The position numbers and the translations under genes are program-made. The notes beneath the pieces are model-generated. The model did not search any database. It was given only the letters and a program-made list of their open reading frames with translations, and had not been told where the DNA came from. Below, one piece after another: positions 5,451 through 56,477 of a stretch of 64,000 nucleotides of DNA. Each line of letters opens with the position of its first letter. Positions within the stretch are counted from its first letter, which is position 1. This DNA comes from Escherichia coli (GTDB lineage: Bacteria > Pseudomonadota > Gammaproteobacteria > Enterobacterales > Enterobacteriaceae): assembly GCF_003019035.1 (NCBI RefSeq), contig NZ_CP027447.1, one strand, 5' to 3'.

Positions 5451-5513
5451 TCTTTCAGGCGATGTGTGCTGGAAGACATTCAGATCTTCCAGTGGTGCAT
5501 GAACGCATGAGAA

Positions 5514-5548: not shown

Positions 5549-5595
5549 TTGCGCGGTTGATAACGGTTCAGACAGGTTTAAAGAGGAATAAGAAA

Positions 5596-12729: not shown

Positions 12730-13437
12730 ACCAGCCGCGCCCTAACAGGCGCACACGATCTGACATTTGCATCCAACTTCGTTACTTACGGCCCGTAAAC
12801 GGGCTGCCCGGATAGGGAATCGATAACTGCTCTCCCATTTTATCCTCTTCAAGCTGGTGCTTTATGTAATCCTGTATCTTCGCCGTGTTCTTACCCACCG
12901 TATCGACGTAATACCCTCTGCACCAGAACTCCCTGTTCCTGTATTTGAATTTCAAATCAACAAACTGCTCGTAAAGCATTAGACTGCTTTTCCCTTTCAG
13001 ATATCCCATAAAGCCGGATACGCTCATTTTGGGCGGGATCTCCACAAGCATATGGATATGATCTGCACAGCATTCAGCTTCCAGAATCCGTACACTTTTC
13101 CACTCACACAGCTTTCTCAAAATACAGCCTATTGCTCTACGCTTCTCTCTGTAGAACACCTGTCTTCGGTATTTTGGCGCAAATACTATGTGATATTTAC
13201 AGTTCCATCGGGTGTGCGCTAAGCTCTTTTCGTTCCCCATTGGGACCCCCTTTTGATTTCTTGTTTGACACTTGCAGTTGCCAGACCGCAAGGTGTTTTA
13301 ACAAATCAAAAGGGGTTTTAATAACTGGCTCAAAGCTGAAAGCTTTCCGGAACCCCCAGCCTAGCTGGGGGTTTTCTGTGCACAAAAAAACGGGCAAGGT
13401 GTCACCACCCTGCCCATTTTCTTTAAAACCGAAAAGA
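12730..13437 (-). mobile_element. IS200-family (IS200/IS605) insertion sequence, about 0.7 kb; ends approximate (+/- 15 bp)
   Basis: single Y1/HuH transposase gene plus the characteristic structured end (hairpins AACCCCCAGCCTAGCTGGGGGTT and GGGCAAGGTGTCACCACCCTGCCC at 13365-13430) upstream of tnpA; no terminal inverted repeats expected for this family. Confidence 0.7.
12782..13240 (-). CDS. tnpA: IS200-type Y1 (HuH) transposase TnpA
   Basis: 152 aa from MGNEKSLAHTRWNCKYHIVFAPKYRR...; HuH motif (HIHMLV) and C-terminal catalytic Tyr region (YIKHQ). Confidence 0.85.
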   Translation of the reverse strand: MGNEKSLAHTRWNCKYHIVFAPKYRRQVFYREKRRAIGCILRKLCEWKSVRILEAECCADHIHMLVEIPPKMSVSGFMGYLKGKSSLMLYEQFVDLKFKYRNREFWCRGYYVDTVGKNTAKIQDYIKHQLEEDKMGEQLSIPYPGSPFTGRK

Positions 13438-14421: not shown

Positions 14422-14562
14422 TACCCTAACAGACGGAAAATTTCAGGTCGCCATAGTTTAGCGATAATCTGTATGAATGCCATAGGATAAACAATAAATA
14501 TAATGAATTGTTACATGAACATAGATACCAACTACCGCCAAAAATCATCTGATTACAGATAG

Positions 14563-17573: not shown

Positions 17574-18998
17574 TCAAGAAATTAAAGATATAATATTCCC
17601 AAGCACATTCGTAACATATTGCTTAGCCTGATTTTCATCACTGCCTTCAGCGTAACAACGGAGTTCAGGGGCATTTCCGGAAGGACGGAGATGTATAATA
17701 TCACCATTAGTTAAAATAAATCTTGCACCATCCGTTTCATCAATAGTGGAACAGGATAATGATTCATACCCTAATTTATTAAAGAAATTATTGGGTGATG
17801 AAATGGCATTTTTTATAATTTTCTGACTTGACTCTGAAGGAAAGTTTTTCACTCTATCTGACCAAGTGAATCGCTGTGGAAGATTATTAACCAGTTGAGA
17901 GATAGTACTATTGCGAGAAGCTATTAAGAGCATTAACGCTGGTAATACTGCATCTCGAGTAGGTAACGCATTTAATTCTTTGCCATTAATTTGTAAATCG
18001 GAGGCAAGCAGAAAACCGCCATTAGCTTCAAAACCAGCGACTGAATCAAATTGTTTAGCAAGTTCTGAAAACGCTGCAATCACATAAGGAGAGCCAATTT
18101 TAGTCCGTTGTATATTTGCAAATTTATGAGATTGTTCAATTGCTGTATTACAACTCACTGGAATAGCCAACGCCTTGATATTAAGTTCAATAGCCGTAAG
18201 TAATCCCAGAATATCGCCTCTTAGCCATTCACCATTTTCATCGGCAACTAAAGGGCGATCACCATCACCATCTGTTGAGAAAATTGCATCGAGATTGTAT
18301 TTTTTAGACCACTCTCTTGCAAGTAGACGATCTTCTTCGCTAACTGCTTCCGTATCAATAGGAACGAACTCATCACTTCTACCGAGGGAGATGACCTCAG
18401 CACCCAATTGATTAAAAAGTGGAGCATATAAATCTCGTCCTGCACTAGAATGTTCATAGATCCCAATTCTCTTCCCCTTTAAAATATCGGAATTAAAAAG
18501 AGAAACATAACGTTCCAGGTAGCAATCCGCACCTTGAGTACTTGTTTCAAGATGAGGTAATACATCTACAGGAGAAAAAACATATTCACTATTTACTATT
18601 GCTAACTCATCCTCTTTTGTGATTTCACCATCTGGACGGTAAAATTTCAAACCATTACGGTCAAAAGGTATGTGACTACCGGTAACCATTATGCAGGGGA
18701 TGTTTTTCTGTATGGAATAATGAGCTAATGCAGGGGTCGGAATTACACCATGATATTCAACAGCGAACCCATGTTGTTTGATAGCGAACGCGCATGCCTG
18801 AGCAATTTCATAACTACTCGGGCGGTTGTCAATGGCTAAAGCAACTTTATTAAAATTGTATTTGTCATCAATAACAGAAAGAAACGCATGACTGAAGGCT
18901 GCACAAACATCATGGGTAAAATCGATGACTAAACCACGAGCACCACTAGTGCCGAAAGCAATATTGCTATCGGTAATGATTTTGTTAGCATTTAACAT
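17574..18998 (-). CDS. alpha-D-phosphohexomutase (ManB-like phosphomannomutase candidate), O-antigen cluster copy
   Basis: 474 aa; phosphoserine-loop motif TGSHIPFDRNG; last gene of the AT-rich cluster; clearly different from the colanic acid CpsG. Confidence 0.65.
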   Translation of the reverse strand: MLNANKIITDSNIAFGTSGARGLVIDFTHDVCAAFSHAFLSVIDDKYNFNKVALAIDNRPSSYEIAQACAFAIKQHGFAVEYHGVIPTPALAHYSIQKNIPCIMVTGSHIPFDRNGLKFYRPDGEITKEDELAIVNSEYVFSPVDVLPHLETSTQGADCYLERYVSLFNSDILKGKRIGIYEHSSAGRDLYAPLFNQLGAEVISLGRSDEFVPIDTEAVSEEDRLLAREWSKKYNLDAIFSTDGDGDRPLVADENGEWLRGDILGLLTAIELNIKALAIPVSCNTAIEQSHKFANIQRTKIGSPYVIAAFSELAKQFDSVAGFEANGGFLLASDLQINGKELNALPTRDAVLPALMLLIASRNSTISQLVNNLPQRFTWSDRVKNFPSESSQKIIKNAISSPNNFFNKLGYESLSCSTIDETDGARFILTNGDIIHLRPSGNAPELRCYAEGSDENQAKQYVTNVLGNIISLIS

Positions 18999-19003
18999 GA
19001 TGA

Positions 19004-19750
19004 TTACTTCTTAATAAATTGAGGAAGTTTGGATAGATTTTTATACGCTAAAGCTATTGGCCAGATAATACCATTCTGTTTCATAGCGCGAATATCTTCC
19101 ATTGATTTATTGATCATGGAAGATACTGAGCGATTGCTAATTCCACCAACACGCATTTTCACTAATACTTTTGGTAAGTACGCTATTGAAATACGCTGTT
19201 TTAAAATATAACGTAATAATGAGTCATAATCAGCAGATATTCGGTAATCTAATGAAAAACAACCAAACTGACTATAACAATCGCGTTTCATATAAAATGA
19301 TGGGTGTGGCGGCATCCAACCTAGTTTCATCTTCAAACGGCTAAATGAGCCACTCTTCCATAATCTAATACGTTTAGTTGTATCATTTTTGGCAACATAC
19401 TCCAAATCACCATAAACAGCATCACACCCTGAACTTTCAAATGTTTTTACTATATCTGCAATAGCATCGTCATAAGCAAGTAAGTCATCAGAGTGCAAAA
19501 ATCCAATTATATCACCAGAAGCTGCTTGAATACCTTTATTCAGTGCATCATAAATGCCATTGTCGGGTTCGCAAATGATTGTTGAAACTCTTGTACATTT
19601 ACTCTTGATTAGCTCTATTGTATTATCTTTCGATGCCCCATCTACAACTATATATTCAATATCTGAATGTGTTTGTTTTTCCAGAGAGAGTAATGTATCA
19701 AGAAGCGTTTTTTCACTATTATAAGTTGCTGTGATAATTGAAATCCGCAT
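19004..19750 (-). CDS. family 2 glycosyltransferase (GT-A fold)
   Basis: 248 aa, N-terminal ISIITATYN...VVDGASKD pattern typical of GT2. Confidence 0.65.
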   Translation of the reverse strand: MRISIITATYNSEKTLLDTLLSLEKQTHSDIEYIVVDGASKDNTIELIKSKCTRVSTIICEPDNGIYDALNKGIQAASGDIIGFLHSDDLLAYDDAIADIVKTFESSGCDAVYGDLEYVAKNDTTKRIRLWKSGSFSRLKMKLGWMPPHPSFYMKRDCYSQFGCFSLDYRISADYDSLLRYILKQRISIAYLPKVLVKMRVGGISNRSVSSMINKSMEDIRAMKQNGIIWPIALAYKNLSKLPQFIKK

Positions 19751-21156
19751 TAGTATCCAACTCCAGAAGAAGAAACTCTTATAACATCATCCTCTTCCAA
19801 GTAGACTCCTGATCTAACCTCAATTATTTCAAGTGGGATCTTGCCAGGATTTTCAATGGCATGTGGAACACCAACAGGTATATATGTTGATTCATTTTCT
19901 GAAACAAGATAAGTTTTCTCCTCAAGATGAACTTTAGCTGTCCCCGAGACAACAATCCAATGTTCAGTACGATGGTAATGGATCTGCTTAGCGGTAATGT
20001 GACCCGGTAATACAATCACATGTTTAACCTGAAAGCGTTGCCCTTCAGCTATAGTGTCATGACTGCCCCAAGGACGAAAAATTTCCCGATGTTGTAAATA
20101 TTCTGTTCGATTATTCTTTTTAAGCTGAGCTACGATGTTTTTAACTTGCTGAACTTTATCTTTATGAGCAACTAATACTGCATCTTTCGTTTCAACGACA
20201 ACCAAATCCTTTACGCCCACGGCCCCAATAAGTCTATGCTGCGAATAAAGATAACTATCTGTAGCATCCTCAACCAAAACATCACCACGAATGGCATTGC
20301 CGCTTTGGTCTTTTGAACTTATTTCCCACAGCGCAGACCATGACCCAACATCACTCCATTGCGCATCCAATGGTACGACCACAGCTTCAGCTGTTTTTTC
20401 CATAACGGCATAGTCGATTGACTCTTCAGGGCAGCAAGAAAAAGAAGAGTTATCCAAGCGGATAAAATCTAAATCTTGAGTCGAGGAAGCTAAGGATTGC
20501 TGACAACTCTCTAGAATATCTGGACGGAATTTTTTTAGTTCATCGATGAATACAGATGCTCTGAACATAAACATTCCACTATTCCAAAGATAACCGCCAT
20601 CTGACAAATACCGCTGAGCTAATTCTAGCTCTGGCTTTTCAACAAAAGCTGCAACTTTATAACCTTGCCCACTAAGTGGATCACCTGACTTAATATAGCC
20701 ATACCCTGTCTCTGGAGCTGTTGGAACGATGCCAAATGTGACCAACTTACCTTGCTGCGCAAAGTCCTTCGCGGCCAAAACTGCTGTAATGAAACTATTC
20801 TCATCCTGAATTTCATGGTCAGCCGCAAGAACCAAAAGTATAGGATCCTCTCCACTTGCCGTTGCCTGAAGCGCTGCAAGGGCTACAGCAGGTGCCGTAT
20901 TGCGCCCAACAGGCTCAAGCAAAATCCCACTATGCTTTAAACCAACTTTACGTAATTGTTCAGCAACAATGAAACGATGTGATTCATTACAAATGATCAA
21001 AGCAGGATTGTGTTCAATCTTTTCTAGCCGTCGCAAAGTCTCTTGCAACATAGTTAAGCGGCTATTTAAAGACAGAAATTGTTTCGGATAAAGTGTACGT
21101 GAAAGAGGCCATAATCTGGTACCAGATCCACCGGCCATGACAACGGGAAGTAGCAT
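19750..21156 (-). CDS. manC: mannose-1-phosphate guanylyltransferase (ManC), O-antigen cluster copy
   Basis: 468 aa, close paralogue of CpsB further downstream ([15 protein letters not shown]... C-terminal cupin region). Confidence 0.85.
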   Translation of the reverse strand: MLLPVVMAGGSGTRLWPLSRTLYPKQFLSLNSRLTMLQETLRRLEKIEHNPALIICNESHRFIVAEQLRKVGLKHSGILLEPVGRNTAPAVALAALQATASGEDPILLVLAADHEIQDENSFITAVLAAKDFAQQGKLVTFGIVPTAPETGYGYIKSGDPLSGQGYKVAAFVEKPELELAQRYLSDGGYLWNSGMFMFRASVFIDELKKFRPDILESCQQSLASSTQDLDFIRLDNSSFSCCPEESIDYAVMEKTAEAVVVPLDAQWSDVGSWSALWEISSKDQSGNAIRGDVLVEDATDSYLYSQHRLIGAVGVKDLVVVETKDAVLVAHKDKVQQVKNIVAQLKKNNRTEYLQHREIFRPWGSHDTIAEGQRFQVKHVIVLPGHITAKQIHYHRTEHWIVVSGTAKVHLEEKTYLVSENESTYIPVGVPHAIENPGKIPLEIIEVRSGVYLEEDDVIRVSSSGVGY

Positions 21157-21161
21157 ATCTA

Positions 21162-21623
21162 TTACCTTGATATAAAATAATTTTTGGTATATTGATGAAC
21201 TGTAGTGCTATTAAGCAACGTTACTACATCAAACCACTTGTAGGAATTATGCTGAATCGTTGGTAGGCGAAGTTGCTGCGGATTAATTTGAATTTCATAT
21301 CCATGCACTACGTAGTGTGTAGAAAAATCTACTTCAGAAAAATTGTCATTGTAAAAGTGTTCATACACACCAAGAAATATGGCCTCACCAAGACTAGTTT
21401 GAACGCCTAACTCTTCAAATGTGATCCTTTTAAAAGCATCCTCGAATGACTCGTCCTTAAAAATTCGCCCTCCAGGCACAAACCAATAATTTTTTGCGGG
21501 GCGATTCAGGCGCTGCCCAAGCAGCGCCTCTCCTTTATCGTTTCTAATTACGAGGTCAATCGAGATTAGAGGAGTATGCTTGACTATTGTTTTAAATAAC
21601 TCATATTCTAATCTCTTTTTCAT
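21162..21623 (-). CDS. gmm: GDP-mannose mannosyl hydrolase (Nudix), O-antigen cluster copy
   Basis: 153 aa, alignable by eye with the colanic acid Gmm/WcaH ([20 protein letters not shown]). Confidence 0.75.
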   Translation of the reverse strand: MKKRLEYELFKTIVKHTPLISIDLVIRNDKGEALLGQRLNRPAKNYWFVPGGRIFKDESFEDAFKRITFEELGVQTSLGEAIFLGVYEHFYNDNFSEVDFSTHYVVHGYEIQINPQQLRLPTIQHNSYKWFDVVTLLNSTTVHQYTKNYFISR

Positions 21624-21625
21624 AA

Positions 21626-22591
21626 CTATCCCCGAAAAGAATCAATATTCTCAAGAAACCATTTATATGTTAATGATAGACCTTCATGTAAATTATAGCG
21701 ATGTTGCCAGCCCAAGTTTTTGAGTCGGGTAACGTCCATAAGTTTTCGCGGGGTGCCATCTGGTTTGGTCGCGTCAAAAACAATTTTTCCTTGATAACCC
21801 ACTACAGAAGCCATTGTTTCAGCCATTTCACGTATAGAACAATCCACCCCCGTACCTACATTAATATGAGATAACATTGGTTGTGTATTTTGTTGATAAA
21901 TTGCGTCCTCTAACTCCATCACATGAACCGAGGCAGCAGCCATATCATCAACATATAAAAACTCACGCATCGGCATTCCCGTGCCCCAGACAATAACTTC
22001 TTGTGCACCACTTTCTTTTGCCTCATGGAATCTACGCATAAGCGCCGGAATAACATGGGAGTTTTCAGGATGGAAGTTATCATTCGAACCATAAAGATTA
22101 GTAGGCATTACACTTCTATAATCGCGACCATATTGACGATTATAAGACTCACATAATTTTATGCCCGCAATCTTAGCAATTGCGTATGGCTCATTAGTTG
22201 GCTCAAGTATGCCCGTCAAAAGTGCAGACTCTTTCATCGGCTGCTCAGCAAATTTTGGATAAATACAGCTAGAGCCTAAAAAAAGTAATTTTTGAATTCC
22301 AACCTTGTGAGCTGAATGTATAATATTACTCTCAATCATGAGATTCTGATAAATGAATTCTGCTGGAAATGTATTATTGGCATAAATACCACCTACTTTT
22401 GCCGCAGCAAGATAAACCTGATCAACCCTCTCTCTCTCAAAAAATGCCTCAACATCCTTCTGCACGGTCAGATCGAGTTCTTTGTGTGTTTTAACCACTA
22501 ACTCGATATCATCACGCAGCGATAATTGTCGGCAAATAGCAGAGCCAACCATGCCCTGGTGCCCAGCAACATATACTCTTTTCTTTATCAT
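21626..22591 (-). CDS. fcl: GDP-L-fucose synthase, O-antigen cluster copy
   Basis: 321 aa; long identical stretches with the colanic acid Fcl ([40 protein letters not shown]). Confidence 0.85.
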
Positions 22592-22594
22592 GTA

Positions 22595-23728
22595 TTAACG
22601 CTCCAGAGAAACCGAAACATCATAACCATGGCTTTTAAGAAGTGCATGTTGTTTCGCTTTTAACAAATCGCTAGCAACCATTTCTGCACACATCTCTTCA
22701 ACTGTAATCTCTGGTTCCCAGCCTAATAGATTTTTTGCTTTTGCAGGGTCACCTAAGAGTGTTTCAACTTCAGCAGGACGGAAATAACGAGGATCAACCC
22801 GAACTATAACGTCTCCAACATTTACACCAATAGCACAATCGGAAATTTTATTAACTACTGTGGCTATCTCATCTACACCCTCACCAGAGAATTCAAGTTC
22901 AAGTCCGACTTCTTTAGCAGCCATACGGACAAATTCACGCACAGATATCTGTTTACCTGTGGCAATGACAAAATCCTCTGGATGATCTTGCTGAAGCATC
23001 ATCCATTGCATGCGAACATAATCTTTAGCGTGTCCCCAGTCACGCAACGAATCCAGATTACCCAAATATAAGCATTGTTCGATCCCCTGAGAAATATTAG
23101 CTATTGCACGAGTAATTTTACGGGTAACAAAAGTTTCTCCACGGCGTGGCGATTCATGGTTAAAAAGAATACCATTACAAGCATATATACCATAAGATTC
23201 ACGGTAGTTAACTGTTATCCAGTAAGCATACATCTTAGCTACAGCATAAGGCGAACGCGGGTAGAATGGAGTTGTTTCACGCTGAGGAATCTCTTGCACT
23301 AAACCAAAAAGTTCTGAAGTAGATGCTTGATAGAAACGTGTTTTTTTCTCCAGCCCACAGATTCGTATTGCTTCTAATAAACGTAATGTCCCTATTGCAT
23401 CTACATCTGCTGTATATTCTGGTGACTCGAATGACACTGCGACATGGGATTGTGCACCAAGGTTATAAATTTCATCCGGTTGAATTTCTTGGATTAAACG
23501 GATCAGATTCGATGTATCTGTTAAATCCCCATAGTGTAAAATAAAATTAGGCTCATCAACGAATCGTGATTGATATATATGATCAATTCTATCAGTGTTA
23601 AATGACGATGCTCGGCGTTTTATACCATGTACTTCATAACCTTTTTCAATAAGAAATTCTGCAAGATATGAACCATCTTGTCCAGTTACGCCTGTGATAA
23701 ATGCAACTTTTTTATTCATTTTAATCAT
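22595..23728 (-). CDS. gmd: GDP-mannose 4,6-dehydratase, O-antigen cluster copy
   Basis: 377 aa, [16 protein letters not shown] motif; paralogue of the colanic acid gmd; true start may be the internal Met (MNKKVAF). Confidence 0.85.
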
Positions 23729-23737
23729 GTTATGTTC

Positions 23738-24769
23738 CTAAATATTCAACTCATTATAAACTTTAATCGTTTCATTAACACATTTTGACCATGAAAATTT
23801 TTGCGCCTGCAGTAAACCTCTTTCGATCATAACATTTCTTTTTAAATTAACTAATTCTAAAGCTTCTTTTAACGTAAACTCATTAATATCATCAATATAA
23901 ATAGGCGCATTCCCCCCTACTTCCGGCAACGAGGATGTGTTTGCACAAATAACTGGACATCCGGCCTGCATAGCTTCTAGGACAGGTATTCCAAACCCCT
24001 CATAACTGGAAGGGTAAACAAGTGCATATGCAGTATTATACTGTATATTTAAATCTTCATTACTCAAAAATGTAAAATGTTCATATCTATTTTTTAAATA
24101 TTTTTCAAGGAGTTCTCTTTCATATTTTTTAAGCGAGCCTCCGCCTACAATTGTAAGCTTTAAGCCATGTAATTTCCCTACAGCTTTGACTGCAAGAACG
24201 AAATTTTTATAACCTTCTCTGGCACCGACAAACAAAACTGAATTATTTACTCTCATATCAGACATGTTAGAAATATGTTTATATGATGGGGATACACCAT
24301 TATAAATCACTCTAATTTTATCTTCGCTAATTGGACAGTACTTAAGTAAATCTCTAGCAGTGTTGTTTGAAATACAAATTACGATATCACTATTCTTGAT
24401 AGCATGATATTTTTGAAGAGAATGAATAAATTTTGACATTCCTCCCCTGTATTTTTCATAGGTGAAATCATGAACAGTTGTAACATTTTTCACATTCAAA
24501 TTAGGACTTTTATGAACTCGATAATAACTTGAGTGTAAAACCCTAGTTTTAATATCACTTACATTTCTATATCTTTCTAAAATTCTTGGCTTACGATATT
24601 GCAACTTTAAGTCGCTTGTATCAAACTCAAATTCTTTATTTTTATACAATAGAATTTCAGCTTGGTAATTTGATTTCACCATTCCTTGGATCAACTCATT
24701 AAAGTATACACTTATTCCACCAAATGATTGGAGATTATAAATAATCCCATCGATAGTTACCATTATCAT
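23738..24769 (-). CDS. GT-B fold glycosyltransferase (GT4-like)
   Basis: 343 aa; C-terminal region with EGFGIPVLEAM motif characteristic of GT4 retaining transferases. Confidence 0.65.
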   Translation of the reverse strand: MIMVTIDGIIYNLQSFGGISVYFNELIQGMVKSNYQAEILLYKNKEFEFDTSDLKLQYRKPRILERYRNVSDIKTRVLHSSYYRVHKSPNLNVKNVTTVHDFTYEKYRGGMSKFIHSLQKYHAIKNSDIVICISNNTARDLLKYCPISEDKIRVIYNGVSPSYKHISNMSDMRVNNSVLFVGAREGYKNFVLAVKAVGKLHGLKLTIVGGGSLKKYERELLEKYLKNRYEHFTFLSNEDLNIQYNTAYALVYPSSYEGFGIPVLEAMQAGCPVICANTSSLPEVGGNAPIYIDDINEFTLKEALELVNLKRNVMIERGLLQAQKFSWSKCVNETIKVYNELNI

Positions 24770-26022
24770 CGCCCTCGCAAGGTAATACGTTCGATTAGAA
24801 CGAACAATATCAAAAAGAAGATCAGTAACAATACATATGCCGGCCCAGCAAAATAAGTTCCAAATGAAGGTGAAATGAGAATTATAGAAAGCAAAAAAAA
24901 GGATGCAGAGTTCGTAATTACTTTTGCATTAAACATTTTAAGCTTAGCAAAAATATAGCCATAAAAGATATTCATAGGTGAAAGAAAAGTTAAAATGATC
25001 AGTCCAACATATCCATAATCAACAAAATTATCCATCCCTTTTGAAAAAGCAGGTGTATGCCCCGACTCTGCAGCTCCTGGATAATAGATTTCATTTACAT
25101 GCAGAAATCCATATACAAAAGGTTTATCAGGAAACAAACCTCTCGGTATATAAGACCAAAATTGGCTGAAATAGACTGTGCCATTGAAAAACTTAACCAC
25201 ACCTTTATCAATATCTTGTAGCAAATAAATACTGTTTTGATACTGGTCAAAATAAGACAATACTACATCGACATTCATATTTCCAATAGCTAAAAATAAA
25301 TTATAGAGAATGGCACACGCTGCCAGGGGTGTAACTAAAATCAGGCCAAATTTTAGAAATCTAGATTTATTAAGACTTAACACTGCAAGATAAAAAATCG
25401 CAAATGAAAGAATAAAGGTTTTCGATCCAAGAAAAAAAACCAAGGTACAATAGAATATCGCGCATAAAAATAATTTTATTTCCGAGCGTAAAGCCAACGC
25501 CCTGGAAAAATAAGATACCGAAAGCATACTTAAAGAAAAGGCATATAAAACACCATTACCTTCTCGATAGTTTTGATAACCATCCCTGGGATTCGTCAAC
25601 CATCCAGAAATACCTATTTCTGACTTTGAAGAAAGAAGAACAAATAATGTAATAAACAGAACCAATGTAATATTTGATATTCTTTTTAATTTTGTATGCG
25701 AAATTAAGCAAGTTAAATAGATCTCTCTATTTTTGAATGCTATATTAAAAATAAAATAAAAGAAAATTATAGATAAAACACCCACAAAAGAGTATATGTT
25801 ATATATAAATAAAGCCTCATTATAATATTGATTTAAAGCAAAGTCTGAACCGTAGAAAAGAGGAGCCAAAATATTTTCCAATAGAAAAACCGGAAATAAA
25901 ATAATGGCGTAAATGGTAAAGGGATTGATAATTGTAAGTCTTAGCGTTTTCGTCGCTAATAAAGAAAAAGAATAATATAGTACTATAGCTAGTGTAACAT
26001 TTAAACAATATATTATTACCAC
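24766..26022 (-). CDS. wzy: O-antigen polymerase candidate
   Basis: 418 aa, very hydrophobic multi-pass membrane protein with low-complexity AT-rich codon usage, located between glycosyltransferase genes; start codon uncertain. Confidence 0.55.
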   Translation of the reverse strand: MVIIYCLNVTLAIVLYYSFSLLATKTLRLTIINPFTIYAIILFPVFLLENILAPLFYGSDFALNQYYNEALFIYNIYSFVGVLSIIFFYFIFNIAFKNREIYLTCLISHTKLKRISNITLVLFITLFVLLSSKSEIGISGWLTNPRDGYQNYREGNGVLYAFSLSMLSVSYFSRALALRSEIKLFLCAIFYCTLVFFLGSKTFILSFAIFYLAVLSLNKSRFLKFGLILVTPLAACAILYNLFLAIGNMNVDVVLSYFDQYQNSIYLLQDIDKGVVKFFNGTVYFSQFWSYIPRGLFPDKPFVYGFLHVNEIYYPGAAESGHTPAFSKGMDNFVDYGYVGLIILTFLSPMNIFYGYIFAKLKMFNAKVITNSASFFLLSIILISPSFGTYFAGPAYVLLLIFFLILFVLIERITLRGR

Positions 26023-26032
26023 ATCCTCCCCC

Positions 26033-26842
26033 CTATCTTAAACCGAATAATTTGCGCTTAATTGATTTTGTTTTTTGATATAATGCTTGAGGAACAATCA
26101 CTTTAAATAAAACTTGCAATGAATTATAGACAGCAAATTTTATTTTATATGATAAGGGCATATGAATATTATTTTTAGCTAGAATATAAGCAATTTCTTT
26201 CTTGACTAATTTTTTATTAGATTCATTTGAACTTACACCCGAAGCATCCATTATGGATACAGGAAAATTCACATAATGCATCGTAGATGGATCTATTGTT
26301 CTTATCATAAAATCACTATCAGCAGCAATTTTTAGTGTTGTATCAAAGCGATTAGCATTATCTTTAAAAAAGCTAGAATGCTGGAAAGTACCCTGATGAG
26401 GAGGAAGTGAAGGCCGACCACATTCCCACTTTTTCTTTATTTTTCCGTAAACTCCAACTATATTATCTTCATCACTAAAATATACATCACCATATATAGT
26501 TGTTGCACTCATATTTTCGTGAATGGCATTTGCTATTTTTGAAAGAGTATTATTTTCATAGAATGTATCGCCAGCTCCCATAAAAATAACCCAATCGCCA
26601 TTTATGTGAGGAAGAGCTTTATTCCAAGCGTCGTATATTCCTTGATCAGATTCGCATAAAAAATAATCTATAATATCAATATATCTATAAATATATTCTA
26701 GTGTTGATTTGTTAGAGTTGCCGTCTATAACAATCCATTGAATATTACAATAATTTTGATTTTTAATAGATTCCGCAGTCTTGCAGAAATCTTCCTCACA
26801 ATTATACGTCGATGTTATTATAGTAATCTGTAAGCCATTCAT
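26033..26842 (-). CDS. family 2 glycosyltransferase
   Basis: 269 aa, N-terminal ITIITSTYN...VIDGNS pattern typical of GT2. Confidence 0.65.
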   Translation of the reverse strand: MNGLQITIITSTYNCEEDFCKTAESIKNQNYCNIQWIVIDGNSNKSTLEYIYRYIDIIDYFLCESDQGIYDAWNKALPHINGDWVIFMGAGDTFYENNTLSKIANAIHENMSATTIYGDVYFSDEDNIVGVYGKIKKKWECGRPSLPPHQGTFQHSSFFKDNANRFDTTLKIAADSDFMIRTIDPSTMHYVNFPVSIMDASGVSSNESNKKLVKKEIAYILAKNNIHMPLSYKIKFAVYNSLQVLFKVIVPQALYQKTKSIKRKLFGLR

Positions 26843-26848
26843 CTTAAC

Positions 26849-27559
26849 TCACTTATTTTTCATGGCAATATATTTTAATCTTAATTCTTTAATTAAGGTC
26901 TTTACTTTACTATCAGTGGAATACTCAATATTAAACGTGCCAGAGACTCCTCTTATTTTGGGAATAGTTGTTCCAATAACTCCTTTTAATTTATTATTTT
27001 TAATTTGCTCAAAAAAAATGTGTTCTAAATAAACACCATCAAGGTCACGCACAGATTTATAAGAATTAGCAAAAAAGTCCCAATATATTTTTTTATTTAC
27101 AACATAAAACCTTGTATCAATCATATTTTCATTCAGAAAAGGAACTGGTATAAAAAAAGCTTTACCATTGAATGCTTTTATACATTGCTTATAATTATCG
27201 ACGTATAGTTTTGATGTTATTTTTGCGAAACTTTCAGCATTAGACAAATAGCGACTATTCATTAATGCATACTCAATTATTTCACCCTCTCCGTAACCTT
27301 TACCATAAGATTTAACACTTTCTGTATCATTTTTGAAATGTATTATCTCGATCGAATCTTTATTAAGTATTTGTTTATCATTATGAATATCTTTCGTCAA
27401 ATCATAATCACTACCATCACATATTACTATAGAATCAGCATTCTTAGACAATTCTCTTATCGCTTTCAATGTATGTAATAATCTTGAATTTTCATCAGAA
27501 AGATTTGTAAGAGGAGCATTAGGTGAGATACAAGAAGTCACTAATACTGGGATTTTCAT
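26849..27559 (-). CDS. hypothetical protein in O-antigen cluster (possible unclassified glycosyltransferase)
   Basis: 236 aa from the ATG at 27559 (MKIPVLVTSCISP...), start overlapping the wzx stop as ATGA; the longer 282-aa reading would overlap wzx by about 140 nt; no family recognisable by eye. Confidence 0.45.
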   Translation of the reverse strand: MKIPVLVTSCISPNAPLTNLSDENSRLLHTLKAIRELSKNADSIVICDGSDYDLTKDIHNDKQILNKDSIEIIHFKNDTESVKSYGKGYGEGEIIEYALMNSRYLSNAESFAKITSKLYVDNYKQCIKAFNGKAFFIPVPFLNENMIDTRFYVVNKKIYWDFFANSYKSVRDLDGVYLEHIFFEQIKNNKLKGVIGTTIPKIRGVSGTFNIEYSTDSKVKTLIKELRLKYIAMKNK

Positions 27560-28800
27560 TTTTTCTTTTCCAGCCTCAACGAAATTAACATTAGTATAAA
27601 ATAATCGGCGGTGACTCTTGCGCTCCAGGCATAAGCCACACCTGCTACAGAAAAATACATAATTGAAAAATATAAAACTAGCAGATATGGAATACATTCA
27701 ACAAGATGAATGAGACCCGTAATTTTTGCATAACCTTTCGATTGGATTTGAGCAAATGGAACTTGAGCAAGAGAGTTGAATACAAAACCTACTAATAATA
27801 TTTGAAATATATAAGGACTCTCAGCGCTATATTGTTTTCCAAGCCATAAAGTTATAATATCACTAGCCTTCAAAGAAAACATAATAGATATAACTATACT
27901 AGTTACACTTATTAATAACGTAGCCTCTTTTATTATTTTTTTTCGCTCATTTTTTGTATTATTCTTGCATAGAGCAGGAAAAATTGTCCTTGCTATAGTT
28001 GTCGGTAATATAAGTAACTTTGAAATTGCATCCGCAGGAGCAATATATAACGAAGCTTTAGCAGGGCCAACTGCATTTGATAAGATAAATCGGTCAATAT
28101 TTGTAAGCAATGGGTTAATTATACTACTAATACTCGCCCATCCTCCAAAACTTAATAGTGCTTTTGTTTTACTTAGACTAAAATCCATTGTAAGCCTATT
28201 ATTTCTAAAAACAAAGAACACGCTTAAAAGAGCACCAGTTATTCTCGCAATCACCAATCCCAAAGTAGCATTAAGCAAACCAACATTTCCATGAATGAAA
28301 ATAACTGGTAGTAGCGCAGTTAACACACCTGTAATTGTTTTTTGTACATTTAATAATTTGAATTTTTCATATCCTTCTAATATCCCCCAACAAACCATAT
28401 TAAGAAGATAAAATGGCAGACAGTAGGATAAAACACTTATAGCATATGCAACACTTTCAGTTTGTTCCGGACCACTAATTAAGGATGCAATCTTATGGTT
28501 GCAGTAATAAAAAATTACGGATACAACAACACCAATAGATAATGTTAATAAAAATGATGTTGTAATTATTTGACTGATTGCCTTTTTGTCGTTTTTATTT
28601 AATGATATTTCACGTACAACGGCTCGCGAAAGTCCGAGATCAAATATACTTGCGTATCCAACTATTGTAAAAAACATTAAAAAAAAGCCAAAGTTAGTTA
28701 TTCCTAACTCCCTTGCCAAATACCCCATCGCAGGTATTGACAATAAAGTTGGGATTGCATACCCAGCCAAATTTATTAAACTATTTATTTTAATACTCAT
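27556..28800 (-). CDS. wzx: O-antigen flippase
   Basis: 414 aa, multi-pass membrane protein of polysaccharide-transporter type immediately downstream of rfbC. Confidence 0.7.
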   Translation of the reverse strand: MSIKINSLINLAGYAIPTLLSIPAMGYLARELGITNFGFFLMFFTIVGYASIFDLGLSRAVVREISLNKNDKKAISQIITTSFLLTLSIGVVVSVIFYYCNHKIASLISGPEQTESVAYAISVLSYCLPFYLLNMVCWGILEGYEKFKLLNVQKTITGVLTALLPVIFIHGNVGLLNATLGLVIARITGALLSVFFVFRNNRLTMDFSLSKTKALLSFGGWASISSIINPLLTNIDRFILSNAVGPAKASLYIAPADAISKLLILPTTIARTIFPALCKNNTKNERKKIIKEATLLISVTSIVISIMFSLKASDIITLWLGKQYSAESPYIFQILLVGFVFNSLAQVPFAQIQSKGYAKITGLIHLVECIPYLLVLYFSIMYFSVAGVAYAWSARVTADYFILMLISLRLEKKK

Positions 28801-28816
28801 TTTTAATTATCTTTTG

Positions 28817-29359
28817 TCAATAATTATTTTGTATAAATGGAGTACCCAAACAATCTTTTTGTGATATAAGAGGTTCTTTGTATAATTGCCAATCTATGTT
28901 AAGTAAAGCATCATTCCAAATAATACATTTCTCATGTTCTTTTGAGTAAAAATTATTGGTCTTATACAATATTTCTGAACCTTCTTCTTTTACATAAAAA
29001 CCATGCGCAAACCCTTCCGGGATCCACAACTGGCGCTTATTCTCAGCAGACAAATTCACTCCAACCCATTTCCCAAATGTAGGTGACGATTTACGAATAT
29101 CAACCGCAACATCAAAAACTTCACCAACAACACAGCGCACCAGTTTTCCTTGAGCATAAGGTTCTAACTGATAATGCAACCCTCGTAAAACACCTTTTCT
29201 GGACTTAGAATGATTGTCCTGAACAAACTCAACCTTACGCCCTACAACCTCTTCGAAAACTTTCTGATTAAAGCTTTCCATAAAGAAGCCACGTTCATCC
29301 CCAAAAACTTTTGGTTCAAAAATCAGCACATCAGGAATTTCAGTTTTAATTACGTTCAT
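28817..29359 (-). CDS. rfbC: dTDP-4-dehydrorhamnose 3,5-epimerase
   Basis: 180 aa, cupin-fold RmlC-like sequence (FGDERGFFMESF..., GLHYQ). Confidence 0.85.
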   Translation of the reverse strand: MNVIKTEIPDVLIFEPKVFGDERGFFMESFNQKVFEEVVGRKVEFVQDNHSKSRKGVLRGLHYQLEPYAQGKLVRCVVGEVFDVAVDIRKSSPTFGKWVGVNLSAENKRQLWIPEGFAHGFYVKEEGSEILYKTNNFYSKEHEKCIIWNDALLNIDWQLYKEPLISQKDCLGTPFIQNNY

Positions 29360-29363
29360 CTTA

Positions 29364-30242
29364 TTAATAACCTTTAATCATTTTGAGCAGATACTGACCA
29401 TAAGCATTTTTCTTCAACGGTTCGGCTAATACTTTTACCTGCTCAGCATCAATAAACCCTTTACGATAAGCAATTTCTTCCGGACAGGAAACCTTTAGTC
29501 CCTGGCGCTCTTCAATGGTGGCAATGAAGTTGCTTGCTTCAATAAGACTTTGATGCGTCCCTGTATCCAGCCATGCATAGCCACGCCCCATCATAGCGAC
29601 AGACAAACGTCCTTGTTCCATATAAATACGGTTAATATCGGTAATTTCCAGTTCACCTCGGGCAGAAGGCTTAAGGTTTTTCGCCATTTCCACAACGTCA
29701 TTGTCATAGAAATAAAGCCCAGTAACCGCATAGTTACTTTTTGGTTCCAGCGGTTTTTCTTCCAGGCTAATTGCAGTACCGTTATTATCAAACTCCACGA
29801 CACCATAGCGTTCAGGATCATTAACGTGATAAGCAAATACCGTTGCACCGATTTCTTTGTTAACAGCAGCTTCCATTAATTTTGGCAAGTCGTGTCCATA
29901 GAAGATATTATCACCAAGCACAAGTGCACAATCATCACCTCCAATAAAGTCTTCACCAATGATAAACGCTTGCGCCAGGCCATCCGGACTCGGTTGTACT
30001 TTATACTGTAGATTAAGCCCCCATTGGCTCCCGTCCCCCAACAAATGTTGGAAACGCGGTGTATCCTGTGGAGTACTGATAATAAGAATATCGCGAATAC
30101 CCGCTAACATAAGCGTTGAAAGCGGATAATAAATCATAGGTTTATCATAAATCGGCAACAGTTGTTTACTCACGGCCATAGTCACAGGATAAAGACGAGT
30201 GCCGGAACCACCAGCTAAAATAATACCTTTACGCGTTTTCAT
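29364..30242 (-). CDS. rfbA: glucose-1-phosphate thymidylyltransferase
   Basis: 292 aa, [21 protein letters not shown]... Confidence 0.9.
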
Positions 30243-30300
30243 TTCACCATTCCTTTTAATTCATCCCGCTCTGGCATCATAAGCGAGATGCAAAAATTTG

Positions 30301-31200
30301 TTAAATTGCCGTAGTCGTAAATAATTCGTTGAGCATTCGTTTCACACCCACCTGCCAGTCAGGCAAGACAAGCGCAAAGTTCTGCTGAAACTTTTCTGTA
30401 TTGAGGCGAGAGTTATGGGGTCGACGGGCTGGTGTGGGATAGGCCGTTGTTGGCACGGCGTTAAGTTTGTTAAGAGCAAGGTTAATCCCTGCTTTGCGCG
30501 CTTCTTCAAATACCAGAGCGGCATAATCGTGCCAGGTTGTTGTACCGCCAGCAACCAGATGGTACAAACCAGCAACTTCTGGTTTGTCTACTGCTACGCG
30601 AATGGCATGAGCGGTGCAATCAGCCAGCAATTCGGCACCTGTTGGTGCGCCAAACTGATCGTTTATCACAGCCAGTTCTTCGCGCTCTTTTGCCAGACGC
30701 AACATTGTTTTGGCGAAGTTATTTCCTTTACCTGCATATACCCAGCTGGTACGGAAAATAATATGCTTCGCGCAATGTTTCTGTAACGCTTTTTCTCCGG
30801 CTAGTTTAGTTTCACCATAAACATTCAAAGGTGCTGTAGCATCCGTCTCCTGCCACGGTATTTCACCGGTTCCCGGAAATACGTAGTCAGTAGAGTAGTG
30901 AATAACCCAAGCGCCGACTTCATTAGCTGCTTTTGCAATCGCTTCGACACTTGTCGCGTTAAGTAATTGTGCAAATTCCGGTTCTGATTCCGCTTTGTCT
31001 ACTGCAGTGTGAGCAGCCGCATTAACAATAACATCAGGGCGAATTTTTTTGACAGTTTCAGCTACACCTTCGGGATTACTAAAATCACCACAATAATCAG
31101 TGGAGTGAACATCAAGAGCAATCAGATTACCCAGCGGTGCCAGAGCACGCTGCAGTTCCCAACCTACCTGCCCTGTTTTGCCGAATAGGAGGATATTCAT
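30301..31200 (-). CDS. rfbD: dTDP-4-dehydrorhamnose reductase
   Basis: 299 aa, [20 protein letters not shown]... Confidence 0.9.
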   Translation of the reverse strand: MNILLFGKTGQVGWELQRALAPLGNLIALDVHSTDYCGDFSNPEGVAETVKKIRPDVIVNAAAHTAVDKAESEPEFAQLLNATSVEAIAKAANEVGAWVIHYSTDYVFPGTGEIPWQETDATAPLNVYGETKLAGEKALQKHCAKHIIFRTSWVYAGKGNNFAKTMLRLAKEREELAVINDQFGAPTGAELLADCTAHAIRVAVDKPEVAGLYHLVAGGTTTWHDYAALVFEEARKAGINLALNKLNAVPTTAYPTPARRPHNSRLNTEKFQQNFALVLPDWQVGVKRMLNELFTTTAI

Positions 31201-32285
31201 TACTGGCGGCCCTCATAGTTCTGTTCAATCCACGACTGATAAGCACCGCTTTTCACATTCTCAACCCAATTTGTATTAGCCAGATACCATTCCACCGTTT
31301 TACGAATACCGCTCTCAAACGTTTCTTGCGGTTTCCAGCCCAATTCGCGGCTAATTTTATCGGCATCAATTGCATAACGGCGATCATGCCCTGGGCGATC
31401 AGCAACATAGGTAATTTGCTCACGATAAGATTTCTCTTTCGGGACTATCTCATCCAACAAATCACAAATAGTGAACACTACGTCGATGTTTTTCTTTTCG
31501 TTGTGTCCACCAATGTTATAAGTTTCGCCTGCTTTACCTTCGGTTACGACGGTATATAACGCTCGAGCATGATCCTCTACATACAACCAGTCGCGGATCT
31601 GATCTCCTTTGCCATAAATAGGTAATGCCTTACCTTCCAGTGCATTAAGAATAACCAGTGGAATAAGCTTTTCCGGGAAATGATAAGGACCATAGTTGTT
31701 CGAGCAATTAGTCACAATGGTCGGTAAACCATAAGTACGTTTCCATGCGCGAACCAAATGATCGCTGGAAGCTTTAGAAGCAGAATATGGACTACTTGGC
31801 GCGTATGCTGTCGTTTCCGTAAATAGCGGCAACGTTTCATTGCTATTTACTTCATCCGGATGGGGTAAGTCACCATACACCTCATCAGTAGAAATATGAT
31901 GAAAACGGAAGTTTTTTTTCTTTTCATCATCCAGACCAGACCAATAATTGCGCGCCGCTTCTAAAAGAACATAAGTACCCACAATATTGGTTTCAATAAA
32001 TGCCGCAGGGCCAGTTATTGAGCGGTCAACGTGGCTCTCTGCTGCCAGGTGCATCACCGCGTCTGGCTGGTGCTGTGCGAAAATACGAGCCATCGCTTCG
32101 GCATCGCAGATATCTGCATGCTCAAATGAATAACGTTCAGAATCAGAAATTTCAGCGAGTGATTCCAGGTTTCCGGCGTATGTTAATTTATCGACATTAA
32201 CAACACTATCTTGCGTATTATTTATTATGTGACGAACAACAGCAGAACCAATAAATCCTGCGCCACCAGTAACAAGTATCTTCAC
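31200..32285 (-). CDS. rfbB: dTDP-glucose 4,6-dehydratase
   Basis: 361 aa from a GTG start ([21 protein letters not shown]); the ORF-track 384-aa reading is an upstream over-extension. Confidence 0.9.
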
Positions 32286-32359
32286 TTTTTTATTCCATAT
32301 AGCCAGAGAGCATGCTGTGAAATAGACTGCTCCAGATTTGATTAATAGATGCATTAATG

Positions 32360-32398
32360 CACGCTACCGCCCCTGGCTTAACAGCTACCAGAGCACTG
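32360..32398 (-). promoter_or_regulatory. JUMPstart element with ops site (GGCGGTAG) in the rfb 5' leader
   Basis: minus-strand sequence CAGTGCTCTGGTAGCTGTTAAGCCAGGGGCGGTAGCGTG; ops octamer at 32364-32371. Confidence 0.75.
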
Positions 32399-32657
32399 CG
32401 TACATTTCCACGATGTGACGAGCGTAACCCACTCGTGCCAAATCCGAAAAATTCAAACGCTAATTGTCTTACCAAACAGCTGTAGAAACAAGGAAAATCC
32501 TGGAAAAATTTGAACTATGATTGCAAGCTAACATGCTGTTTTTATTGTACTTATAAAAAAGACAACGGCAGTGAGATTCAATGAGCAAAACTTATGCTAT
32601 GAATCTTCACTGCCGTTTTTAATTACTTACTGACCGACACTTCCAGTCAGGAATTTG

Positions 32658-33551
32658 TTACTCGCTTAACAGCTTCTCAATCCCTTTACGGAACTTCGCC
32701 CCTTCTTTGAGGTTGCGTAGTCCATACTTCACAAATGCCTGCATATACCCCATTTTTTTACCGCAGTCGTAGCTGTCACCTGTCATCAGCATGGCATCAA
32801 CGGACTGTTTTTTCGCCAGTTCAGCGATGGCATCAGTCAGCTGAATACGCCCCCATGCACCAGGCTGAGTGCGTTCAAGTTCCGGCCAAATATCTGCAGA
32901 AAGCACATAGCGACCAACGGCCATGATGTCTGAGTCCAGCGTCTGCGGCTGATCCGGTTTTTCGATGAATTCAACAATGCGGCTGACTTTACCTTCGCGG
33001 TCCAGCGGCTCTTTGGTCTGGATGACAGAGTATTCAGAGAGGTCACCCGGCATACGTTTTGCCAGCACCTGGCTGCGGCCCGTTTCGTTGAAGCGCGCAA
33101 TCATGGCAGCAAGGTTGTAGCGCAGCGGGTCGGCGCTGGCGTCGTCGATCACAACGTCTGGCAGCACCACGACAAATGGATTGTCACCAATGGCAGGTCG
33201 TGCACATAAAATGGAGTGGCCCAAACCTAAAGGTTCGCCCTGACGCACGTTCATAATTGTCACGCCCGGCGGGCAAATGGACTGTACTTCCGCCAGCAGT
33301 TGACGCTTCACGCGCTGTTCAAGGAGAGATTCTAATTCATAAGAGGTGTCGAAGTGGTTTTCGACCGCGTTCTTGGAAGCGTGAGTTACCAGGAGGATTT
33401 CTTTGATCCCTGCAGCCACAATCTCGTCAACAATGTACTGAATCATTGGCTTGTCGACGATCGGTAGCATCTCTTTGGGAATCGCCTTAGTGGCAGGCAA
33501 CATATGCATCCCTAGACCCGCTACAGGAATAACTGCTTTTAAATTCGTCAT
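32658..33551 (-). CDS. galF: UTP-glucose-1-phosphate uridylyltransferase homologue GalF
   Basis: 297 aa from the ATG at 33551 ([39 protein letters not shown]). Confidence 0.85.
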
Positions 33552-41999: not shown

Positions 42000-42099
42000 G
42001 TCGTTACCCTTTTTCAGGCAATAGTTGGCCCTGACCGAAACGGCCAATTTTGTTTTTTCGTTATTTACCGGAGAATTAATCCGGTTGATTATTCAACGG

Positions 42100-43538: not shown

Positions 43539-44762
43539 TTATCCCCGAATATCATTTATAAATTGACGTAACACGTTCTCTTTATCGAGCGTGCGTTCGG
43601 CATATTCACGTGCCACCGTGTTGTGTTTGGGCAGCAGGAGCGCCTGACGGATCCCCGCCACCAGCGCCTCGACCGATTCCGGTTCTACGCAAACCGCAAT
43701 GCCCGGAAAGGTTTCGCAAAGCTGTCCCAGTTCTGTGTGGGCTTCAGCAGTAATCACCGCGTTACCGCCTACCGCCAGAATATTGGTCAGTTTCGACGGC
43801 AATACGGCATCTGCCGCGCCGCGTTTTTGCACCACCAGATGGCAATCCCCCATCTTCAGCAGTGCGGGTAAAGCGTCATACGATTGCAGCGGGAAAAATT
43901 GCATGTTGCGCAGTCCACGCTGCTGCGCCATTTTTTCCAGCCGCGCTTTGCCGCCGCCCTGCCCGACAATGGCAAAAATCAGCGGTTCATCGCGCAGACG
44001 ATCGGCAGCTTCAATAACGTTTTCCAGCCCCTGCTTTTCACCAATATTGCCGGAGTAAAGAATGATTTTTTTGTTATCCGGCAGGTCAAGCTGGTTACGA
44101 AGGGCGTCAACATCGGCATCTGCAACATGCTGAAAACGGGCAATTTCCGACCAGTTGGGGAAGAAGATGACGTTTTCCGCCGCCACGCCTTTTTCGATGG
44201 CTTTATTCATCATCGAACGCGAAATCGTGGAGACGTTATCGACGTTATTCAGTCCGCTACGTTCGAACGCCGTTGCCAGCTGTGCCACTTTGCCGCCTTT
44301 GCCTTTTCCGGCAAGGCCCAGCCCCAGCATGGCGTCCACTTCGTAATCCTGAATATGTAGCACCGTGCGCGCACCAGACAGTTTCGCCAGCAGGCGCATT
44401 CCCGGCGTGCAAAACAGCGTTGGTACCACGCCGATAATGCGATCCGGCTTCCAGCGACGTTGCGCCATCAGCGGAAAGAAACTGCTGGCGGCAAAACTGC
44501 CGAGATGCAACAGGCGTTTCAGGGTGCTCGGCTGTTTTGGTACGTACAGCGGGCAGCGCCACACCGTGGCGGCCCCCTCTTCTCGTTTGTACCGCCAGGC
44601 GGAATAGTTCTCGCCCACCTGCCATTGCGGGTAGTAAGGCGGTGCGGTAATAACCCGCACCTCATGACCTTGTGCCGCCAGCCATTCCACCATCTCGCCG
44701 GTGTACTTGCCGATGCCGGTTAACTCCGGCGAGTAGTTAATGCCGTAGACCAGTATTTTCAT
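43539..44762 (-). CDS. wcaI: colanic acid biosynthesis glycosyltransferase WcaI
   Basis: 407 aa; conserved order. Confidence 0.85.
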
Positions 44763-55120: not shown

Positions 55121-56260
55121 TTACCAGTTATGAATGTCGCTGGCTGTATCCGTCATGTAACGGACACCGCTAATAGTTGGCAGCAACTGATTGATCAGAC
55201 GGTTCCAGCGGGATACCGGTGCGGTGGTGACATACACCACGTCATAAGGTTGCAGGCGGAATTCTGTCGCCATCACCAGCGACGTGGCATCGGACATATC
55301 CAGCTGGTAGATATTGGCAATCTTGCCGTTACGCCCGCCCTCGCCTTTCAACGGACGAATGACAAAGATGCCGCTGGCGTTGGAGGTGGTCATGTCGATG
55401 CCTTCAGCATTACCCAGGGCTTCAGTCAGGGTCATGCCGCTAAAGTCCATTTTCAGGGTGCTCTGTTTCTTCACTTCACCCATCACAAACACTTTCAGAT
55501 CATCATTACGCGGCACGTAGAGAATATCGCCGGGGTAAAGCAGTCGGTTCTGATTGAGGTCGCCGTTTTGCATCAGCGCCTGCAAAGAAATGCGCTCTTC
55601 ACGACCATTGTGTGTTAGCACCACGTTGCGCCAGTCAGCGGTGTCGGTCAGGCCACCTGCGGCGTTGATGGCGTCGAGAATGGTCAGTGGCACGTTGGTG
55701 ATCGCCTGTTGACCGGATTTATTCACCTGACCGGAGATATAGGCTTTTTGCGAGCGGAAGGCGGCGATATTAACGTCCACCTGCGGGTCAGCGATGTACG
55801 TCGCTAAGCGCCCGGTAATATCACTGCGGATTTCAGCGAGCGTTTTCCCCACCACGTGAACTTTGCCGATATACGGGTAGAACATGGTGCCGTCAGGCTG
55901 TACCCAGTTGCCGGTGTCGCTGGAGCTGCGGTACTGACCGGCTGGCGTGGTGAGTTCCGGGTGATCCCAGACGGTGACATTAAGAACGTCTCCCGGCCCG
56001 ACGCGATACTGATAATTCGCGATCTCACTTTCCAGCGTCATATTGGGGCGCGCTACATTCGGGCGTGGGCGTAATTGGTCAATCAGGCGCGGGGTCAGCG
56101 GATAAACATTCACCATTTTGTCGAGATCGAAATCAGCGTCCTGCTGTTTGATGACGTCTTTCCCCATCGTCGACATATTGCTGCCCGGAAGTACTGTGCA
56201 ACCGCTTATCAAGGTTACTGACACCAATAATGGCATCAATTTCATTTTGGATTTCATCAT
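55121..56260 (-). CDS. wza: outer-membrane polysaccharide export lipoprotein (OPX)
   Basis: 379 aa, lipoprotein signal ending in lipobox LISGC. Confidence 0.9.
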
Positions 56261-56438
56261 TGTTTATTTATCACTTTGGCAGAGTAATTATCCTGTGCAC
56301 TATTAATAGCAATGTCGCCATGCACATTTACCTTGCAGTTAATTGAATAAAAATTTAACTGGCATCAGTCCTAAAAAAATTGATTTCATCCGCAGGCTAT
56401 TGACAGAATAATTCAGACTGGTCTTTCAGGCATCCAGA

Positions 56439-56477
56439 CACGCTACCGCCCCTGGCTTTTTAGCTACCAATACACTG
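56439..56477 (-). promoter_or_regulatory. JUMPstart-like element with ops site (GGCGGTAG) in the colanic acid operon leader
   Basis: CACGCTACCGCCCCTGGCTT on plus, i.e. AAGCCAGGGGCGGTAGCGTG on minus, about 185 bp upstream of the wza start; ops at 56443-56450. Confidence 0.7.

Follow-up and report, generated by a model that had tools for sequence, protein, structure and literature searches.

The minus-strand element that precedes the O-antigen (rfb) genes in this Escherichia coli genome is the standard, already-known JUMPstart/ops element in its standard position, and we consider it very likely that it acts as the leader signal of an O36-type rfb operon, with RfaH loading at ops and transcription reading through the operon. 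The locus teaches nothing new about how JUMPstart, ops or RfaH work. Its value lies in annotation: the element delimits the O-antigen operon at its 5′ end and identifies its regulatory leader, and it leads to the prediction that the O36 antigen needs RfaH, an antiterminator with a known association with virulence, for its expression.

Results

An exact JUMPstart element with an intact ops site

Throughout, the window is the whole 64,000-nucleotide stretch of DNA that we analysed, and all coordinates refer to it (Table 1). The initial annotation had placed a canonical 39-bp JUMPstart on the minus strand about 75 bp upstream of the GTG start codon of rfbB, and a search of the window for the 39-mer CAGTGCTCTGGTAGCTGTTAAGCCAGGGGCGGTAGCGTG returned that copy once, without mismatches, at a counted distance of 74 nt from the GTG. 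In 100 shuffles, the 39-mer gave no matches with up to three mismatches permitted. The Rfam covariance model for JUMPstart (RF01707) recovered the same coordinates at 61.1 bits (gathering score, 35), and the match was full-length (model positions 1–38 of 38), with an E-value of 1.3e-11 for the whole window. The element also has the location typical of its family, in the 5′ leader and in the same orientation as the 15 O-antigen genes that begin with rfbB. Within the 39-mer, the direct repeat GGTAGC-N15-GGTAGC occupies positions 9–14 and 30–35, and the same repeat is present in the second JUMPstart of the window. Leeds and Welch (1997) reportedly treated this GGTAGC direct repeat as defining the JUMPstart family, and the element itself is said to have been the subject of work by Hobbs and Reeves (1994).

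The downstream part of the element is ops, which, like all 15 O-antigen genes, lies on the minus strand, the non-template strand of the transcription unit. Bases 3–8 of ops, which are needed for RfaH recruitment to a site that is read as non-template DNA while polymerase pauses at U11 (PMC5995543), are intact in the rfb copy. With U11 taken as position −1, G2 falls at −10 and G12 at +1, so that the sequence, as we read it, fits the consensus pause G-10/Y-1/G+1, in keeping with the consensus elemental pause context described at ops (PMC5995543). The octamer had been read correctly as GGCGGTAG in the initial annotation, and its identification as part of an ops site stands, but the functional signal for RfaH recruitment is now defined as the 12-nt ops rather than the octamer alone.

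Table 1. Features of the rfb leader, its operon and the second JUMPstart, in window coordinates.
Feature	Position	Strand	Evidence or remarks
39-bp JUMPstart	32360-32398	minus	exact match; Rfam RF01707; longest invariant spacer block
12-nt ops, GGCGGTAGCGTG	32371-32360	minus	all 12 bases as in the wild-type ops of PMC5995543
Octamer, GGCGGTAG	32364-32371	minus	within 12-nt ops
Predicted pause position U11	32361	minus	G12 at 32360
Upstream GGTAGC copy	32384-32389	minus	direct repeat
Downstream GGTAGC copy	32363-32368	minus	inside ops
Stem-loop	32373-32391	minus	CUGGU 32391-32387, loop AGCUGUUAA 32386-32378, GCCAG 32377-32373; Rfam consensus structure
galF terminator hairpin and U-run	32555-32617	minus	RNA fold −30.8 kcal/mol, z = −7.4
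Putative rfb promoter	32463-32491	minus	−35 TTGTTT 32491-32486, 17-nt spacer, −10 GACAAT 32468-32463
Post-ops leader	32286-32359	minus	74 nt between ops and rfbB
rfbB (dTDP-glucose 4,6-dehydratase)	31200-32285	minus	NF007490, 795 bits, 1-361/361; first operon gene
O36-type O-antigen operon	17574-32285	minus	15 genes, 14,712 bp; 99.9% identical to SCU-301
Second JUMPstart, with 12-nt ops	56439-56477	minus	Rfam 57.3 bits; upstream of wza
wza	55121-56260	minus	NF011658, 729 bits; first gene of the colanic-acid cluster

The rfb leader lies between the galF terminator and rfbB

Upstream of the JUMPstart, galF ends in a terminator hairpin that none of 200 shuffles equalled in stability and whose stem is maintained by differing sequences in divergent loci. 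Because this terminator (32617–32555) is strong, the rfb unit requires its own promoter, which should lie between about 32555 and 32398. A second conserved block of the spacer, TCCTTGTTTC...TTTGGTAAGACAATTAGCG, fits the −35 and −10 elements of a promoter, and in our alignment its CTTGT and GACAAT are kept, at constant spacing, in nine galF-linked loci. We base the promoter assignment on this conservation, since a consensus promoter scan of 32200–32760 called no minus-strand site above threshold. From the position of the putative promoter, transcription is predicted to start near 32459, giving a leader of ~174 nt in which ops would span about +88 to +100. The ops site is intergenic and downstream of both the galF terminator and the promoter-like block TTGTTT-17-GACAAT, the promoter itself being putative.

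Folding of the leader added little to this arrangement. As RNA, the 188-nt leader was unremarkable (z = −1.55); a hairpin of the form ACGAGUG-GGUUA-CGCUCGU at 32417–32437 (minus strand), between the putative start site and the JUMPstart, appeared in both the minimum-free-energy and centroid folds and was conserved among close relatives in the alignment. Folded as DNA, the 39-mer and the 12-mer gave weak structures only. Because the isolated ops 12-mer formed a weak hairpin (−0.9 kcal/mol) with pairing unlike that of the crystal structure, DNA folding adds nothing on the ops hairpin.

At the downstream end of the leader, the rfbB GTG (32285–32283) has a weak Shine-Dalgarno sequence only (GGAA at −11 to −8), and RefSeq annotates the same codon as the start where the leader is 100% identical. 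We rejected as a start codon the in-frame ATG at 32352–32354 (minus strand), which is absent in K-12 (ATTAATACC); the protein profile is complete from the GTG. That ATG lies 5 nt past the 12-nt ops with no stop before rfbB and would add 23 residues, and because of it the list of open reading frames gives 384 amino acids for rfbB.

The operon downstream of ops

The minus strand of the window carries, in order, the colanic-acid cluster (wza to wcaM), galF, the O-antigen cluster, gnd, ugd and wzzB, and the his operon lies on the plus strand in convergent orientation. The genes of the O-antigen operon are rfbBDAC, wzx, a hypothetical gene, a GT2 gene, wzy, a GT4 gene, gmd, fcl, gmm, manC, a second GT2 gene and manB (phosphomannomutase), and the wzx and wzy of the near-identical strain SCU-301 are annotated as O36 family. 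All are co-directional, with intergenic gaps of −4 to +58 nt. The operon has a GC content of 37% (0.371) compared with 48% for the window, falling to about 30% across 24–29 kb. Inside the operon we found no convincing intrinsic terminator on the minus strand, the first lying at 15950–15924, after gnd. Promoter-like sites inside the operon occurred at the chance rate (64 found, 62.9 expected), and internal promoters are possible. The wzy reading frame (O36 family) at 24766–26022 (minus strand) is intact, with 418 codons and a GTG start; in SCU-301, which is 99.9% identical, the annotation lists wzy as a pseudogene with a frameshift and an internal stop.

Predicted loading of RfaH at ops

The ops/RfaH operon-polarity-suppressor system was reportedly described by Bailey (1997) and by Artsimovitch and Landick (2002). 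The rfaH gene sits elsewhere on the E. coli chromosome, outside the 64-kb window. For the present locus, our own analysis supplies the sequence, strand and position of the element, its conservation and the architecture of the operon, and the recruitment mechanism and in vivo effect are drawn from the literature on this system (PMC5995543, PMC11001881, PMC9765446; see also Zuber 2018, Zuber 2024 and Hustmyer 2022).

In the mechanism that we favor, transcription would start at the putative promoter between the galF terminator and the JUMPstart, and RNA polymerase would run into ops and pause at U11. The exposed non-template ops DNA would then fold into a small hairpin presenting G5 and a flipped-out T6, as in the reported ops hairpin, which has a C3:G8 closing pair and in which T6 is flipped into a pocket of RfaH (PMC5995543). 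RfaH, a paralog of NusG, would bind this hairpin, refold its KOW domain and ride the polymerase for the whole unit; the ops-paused complex is known to be swivelled and pre-translocated and to be hyper-stabilised by RfaH during KOW refolding (PMC11001881). Polymerase modified in this way would exclude NusG, would resist pausing, Rho-dependent termination and elongation silencing by H-NS/StpA, and would couple to the ribosome, with the net effect of read-through of the 14.7-kb, AT-rich, 15-gene operon.

The closest experimental parallel comes from strain CFT073, in which the RfaH ChIP-seq signal begins at the ops of the homologous galF-to-O-antigen leader and persists through the unit (PMC9765446). 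In a ΔrfaH derivative of that strain, RNA polymerase occupancy was near background distally, with a travelling-ratio quotient of 0.1–0.34 or less (PMC9765446). All RfaH targets in CFT073 were covered by H-NS/StpA, and ops-like sites in coding regions were unbound (PMC9765446). Our locus shares with the known ops/RfaH systems the identical 12-nt ops on the non-template strand, its place in the predicted leader of a long AT-rich cell-envelope operon, and a first gene with a weak Shine-Dalgarno sequence and a GTG start. It differs from them in that RfaH binding and effect are known there by experiment, whereas here they are predicted from sequence. The initial annotation had gone further than the element itself in predicting RfaH-dependent antitermination of the whole O-antigen operon; the sequence features of the leader and the behavior of the homologous CFT073 leader both agree with that prediction, which reaches this O36 operon by homology to other leaders, and we infer RfaH dependence of the operon on that basis.

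A positioned hairpin upstream of ops

The 5′ half of the JUMPstart is predicted to form a stem-loop, of a kind previously reported for this motif by Weinberg et al. 2010 (PMC2864571), with a 5-bp stem, a 9-nt loop and one spacer G (32372) before ops. The JUMPstart hairpin is not discussed in the recent RfaH papers that we cite here, in which the 12-nt ops counts as sufficient (PMC5995543, PMC11001881, PMC11685472). We scanned 100,044 species genomes for GGGGCGGTAGCGTG, a pattern that fixes the outermost 3′ base of the stem only, and obtained at least 120 loci. Taxonomy served as a criterion independent of the stem, gammaproteobacteria being the class in which RfaH/ops operates, and the control was the 62 listed matches from other phyla, in GC-rich non-gammaproteobacteria, which make up about half of the listed loci and are presumed to be chance matches. 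Among the matches listed, a stem of at least 5 bp at the exact position was found in 42 of 59 gammaproteobacterial sites but in 14 of the 62 others (Fisher p = 8e-8), and sliding the anchor 1–6 nt upstream left a stem in only 1–9 of the 59 listed gammaproteobacterial sites.

The stems themselves varied widely, with 23 distinct ones among the matches listed, for instance CTGGT/GCCAG and CAGGT/GCCTG in enterics, CAGGA/TCCTG and CAAGA/TCTTG in Pseudomonas, CACTGG/TCGGTG in Marinobacter and TGATGG/CCGTCG in Nitrincola. G·U pairs were frequent in the stems and give the structure its sense-strand specificity. We also aligned 26 JUMPstart-type sequences picked by their CAGTG box and loop rather than by their stem, and in this alignment pairing held in 99.2% of stem cells, compared with 90.1 ± 1.3% in shuffles (0 of 500 as high) and 21–61% with slid partners. 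Two of the five stem pairs showed compensatory double changes.

These observations bear on the idea that the element is a structured RNA that binds a factor or ligand independently of RfaH, Rfam listing it as a cis-regulatory RNA motif. Covariation and sense-specific G·U pairs back the stem-loop that such a switch would need, and Weinberg et al. left the 'switch' status of the motif open (PMC2864571). The most invariant part of the element, however, is the unpaired ops, and because of this we regard an RfaH-independent switch as highly improbable; in addition, RfaH reads ops as non-template DNA (PMC5995543), and with 5 bp in its stem and 9 nt in its loop the hairpin is probably too small for a typical ligand-binding aptamer.

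The base of the JUMPstart stem lies 12 nt from the RNA 3′ end at U11, and in hairpin-stabilised pauses the hairpin base lies 11–12 nt from the RNA 3′ end (PMC4227799). The JUMPstart hairpin thus resembles the small hairpin of a his-type pause in its placement, but the ops pause is described as biochemically distinct, since it is pre-translocated and prone to backtracking (PMC11001881). The structure of the ops-paused complex resolved no RNA beyond the exit channel (PMC11001881). A second likeness is to the opsX/UpxY sites of Bacteroides, at which a NusG paralog likewise controls polysaccharide operons and a leader element of ~40 bp combines a nascent-RNA hairpin, a non-template DNA hairpin (with a GCG..AGC stem) and a pause (PMC11685472). 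Those sites differ in belonging to another phylum and another factor, and for the E. coli hairpin a role is only hypothesised. We can imagine, as a speculation that we think rather unlikely to be right, that the JUMPstart is a bipartite signal of ~39 bp in which the nascent-RNA hairpin tunes the lifetime or backtracking of the ops pause and hence the loading of RfaH or the ribosome in vivo. Were the hairpin to influence the pause or the loading of RfaH, the picture for E. coli would come nearer to that of the multipartite Bacteroides sites.

A further regularity was found just downstream of ops, where, among the matches listed, 20 of the 59 gammaproteobacterial sites and none of the 62 others carried YCTG directly after the 12-nt site (p = 8e-8). 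In the transcript, YCUG(G) could base-pair with CCAGG where the 3′ stem strand meets the spacer, and the alternative hairpin so formed would enclose ops and could provide an 'escape' pairing. The hairpin and YCTG observations are a property of the whole family and not of the rfb locus.

Conservation of the element among E. coli loci

Of 5,426 complete E. coli genomes, 4,555 carried some version of the galF–rfb spacer. Where the loci diverged most, the alignment shrank to positions 293–330 of the 333-nt query (window 32398–32358), which is essentially the JUMPstart, and many other spacer alignments ended at its 3′ edge. By megablast, the exact 39-mer was found in at least 791 E. coli genomes, a lower bound since variants with one mismatch lack the 28-nt word that megablast needs. 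Many E. coli genomes had a leader with 100% identity, and strains of other serogroups, an O7:H15 strain among them, matched the 471-bp leader region without a difference. When we aligned ten spacers that lead into different genes (rfbB, wzx of O6 and O87, a glycosyltransferase gene, and the group 1 capsule gene wzi), the longest invariant block was the JUMPstart, and homology stopped right after the 12-nt ops.

Experimental work on the sequence-identical O7 leader is said to have been published by Marolda and Valvano (1998), who, judging by the title, studied its stem-loop. The galF–rfb leaders of K-12, O7 and CFT073 (O6) share the genomic position, the GGTAGC-N15-GGTAGC repeat and the stem-loop with the leader in the window, and the distance to rfbB in known strains is similar (74–75 nt). 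The K-12 JUMPstart has one mismatch to the window copy (TGTTAAG versus TGTAAAG). The element itself is the same in the known leaders; only the serogroup-specific genes downstream, here O36-type, differ.

Because homology between serogroups stops at the 3′ edge of the 12-nt ops, the JUMPstart, judged from these alignments, lies at the recombination boundary upstream of the variable cluster. Conservation of the 39-bp block could in principle be explained mainly by this junction, which would serve the exchange of whole clusters and leave any regulatory role incidental, and the sharing of one leader by the O36 and O7 clusters fits such exchange. The element also occurs, however, upstream of wza in the window and before the wzi capsule locus of another E. 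coli genome, and ops with its positioned hairpin recurs across gammaproteobacteria in unrelated contexts; moreover, ChIP and mutational data show a direct function in RfaH recruitment (PMC9765446, PMC5995543). We therefore consider it extremely unlikely that the block is conserved mainly as a junction. The junction and regulatory roles are compatible, and it is the junction as sole explanation that is unlikely.

Other copies of the octamer and of the JUMPstart in the window

By itself the bare octamer is weak evidence, because the window contains five copies where 1.08 would be expected, each of them on the minus strand. Only two of the five have the 12-nt ops and JUMPstart context, and the remaining three lack both the trailing ..TG and that context. 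The second complete element lies upstream of wza, and it is identical to the rfb copy at 33 of 39 bases, with the same 12-nt ops, the same repeat and a stem that is kept through a C-to-U change (giving a U·G pair). Its distance to the first gene is larger, 178 nt to the wza ATG compared with 74 nt for the rfb copy, and it is followed by TCTG (56435–56438), a form of the YCTG motif, where the rfb ops is followed by CATT. In CFT073, the wza leader was bound by RfaH only once H-NS and StpA had been removed, and the locus is silenced at initiation by H-NS (PMC9765446).

We rejected each of the three remaining octamers as an RfaH site and consider them probably fortuitous. The copy at 14532–14539, in the ugd–wzzB spacer, reads GGCGGTAGTTGG and lacks JUMPstart context; it lies on the non-template strand for wzzB, and the O36 relative SCU-301 has it too, but the same spacer of an O7 strain does not. 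The copy at 43769–43776 is inside the wcaI coding sequence, a class of site that was unbound in CFT073 (PMC9765446); this copy is conserved in the O7 strain. The third, at 57030–57037, falls within an unannotated reading frame of the plus strand (56853–58502), to which it is antisense. Although these fortuitous-looking octamers might suggest that the rfb element likewise matches by chance, or is a remnant that has decayed and lost its function, its shuffle and Rfam statistics and its conservation in E. coli exclude chance, and with all 12 ops bases intact the probability of either is negligible.

Elsewhere in the window we noted several features outside the two JUMPstart loci. An IS200-type insertion at 12782–13373 (minus strand), between wzzB and hisI, comprises a match to Rfam STnc490 (13250–13373, 146 bits) and a transposase-sized reading frame (12782–13291), and the same insertion is annotated in SCU-301 (IS200C tnpA). 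Three further Rfam matches exceeded their gathering scores: an algC RNA motif just upstream of cpsG (42004–42053, minus strand, 78 bits), the histidine operon leader (5426–5549, plus strand, 133 bits) and the sRNA STnc240 (3054–3128, minus strand, 68 bits).
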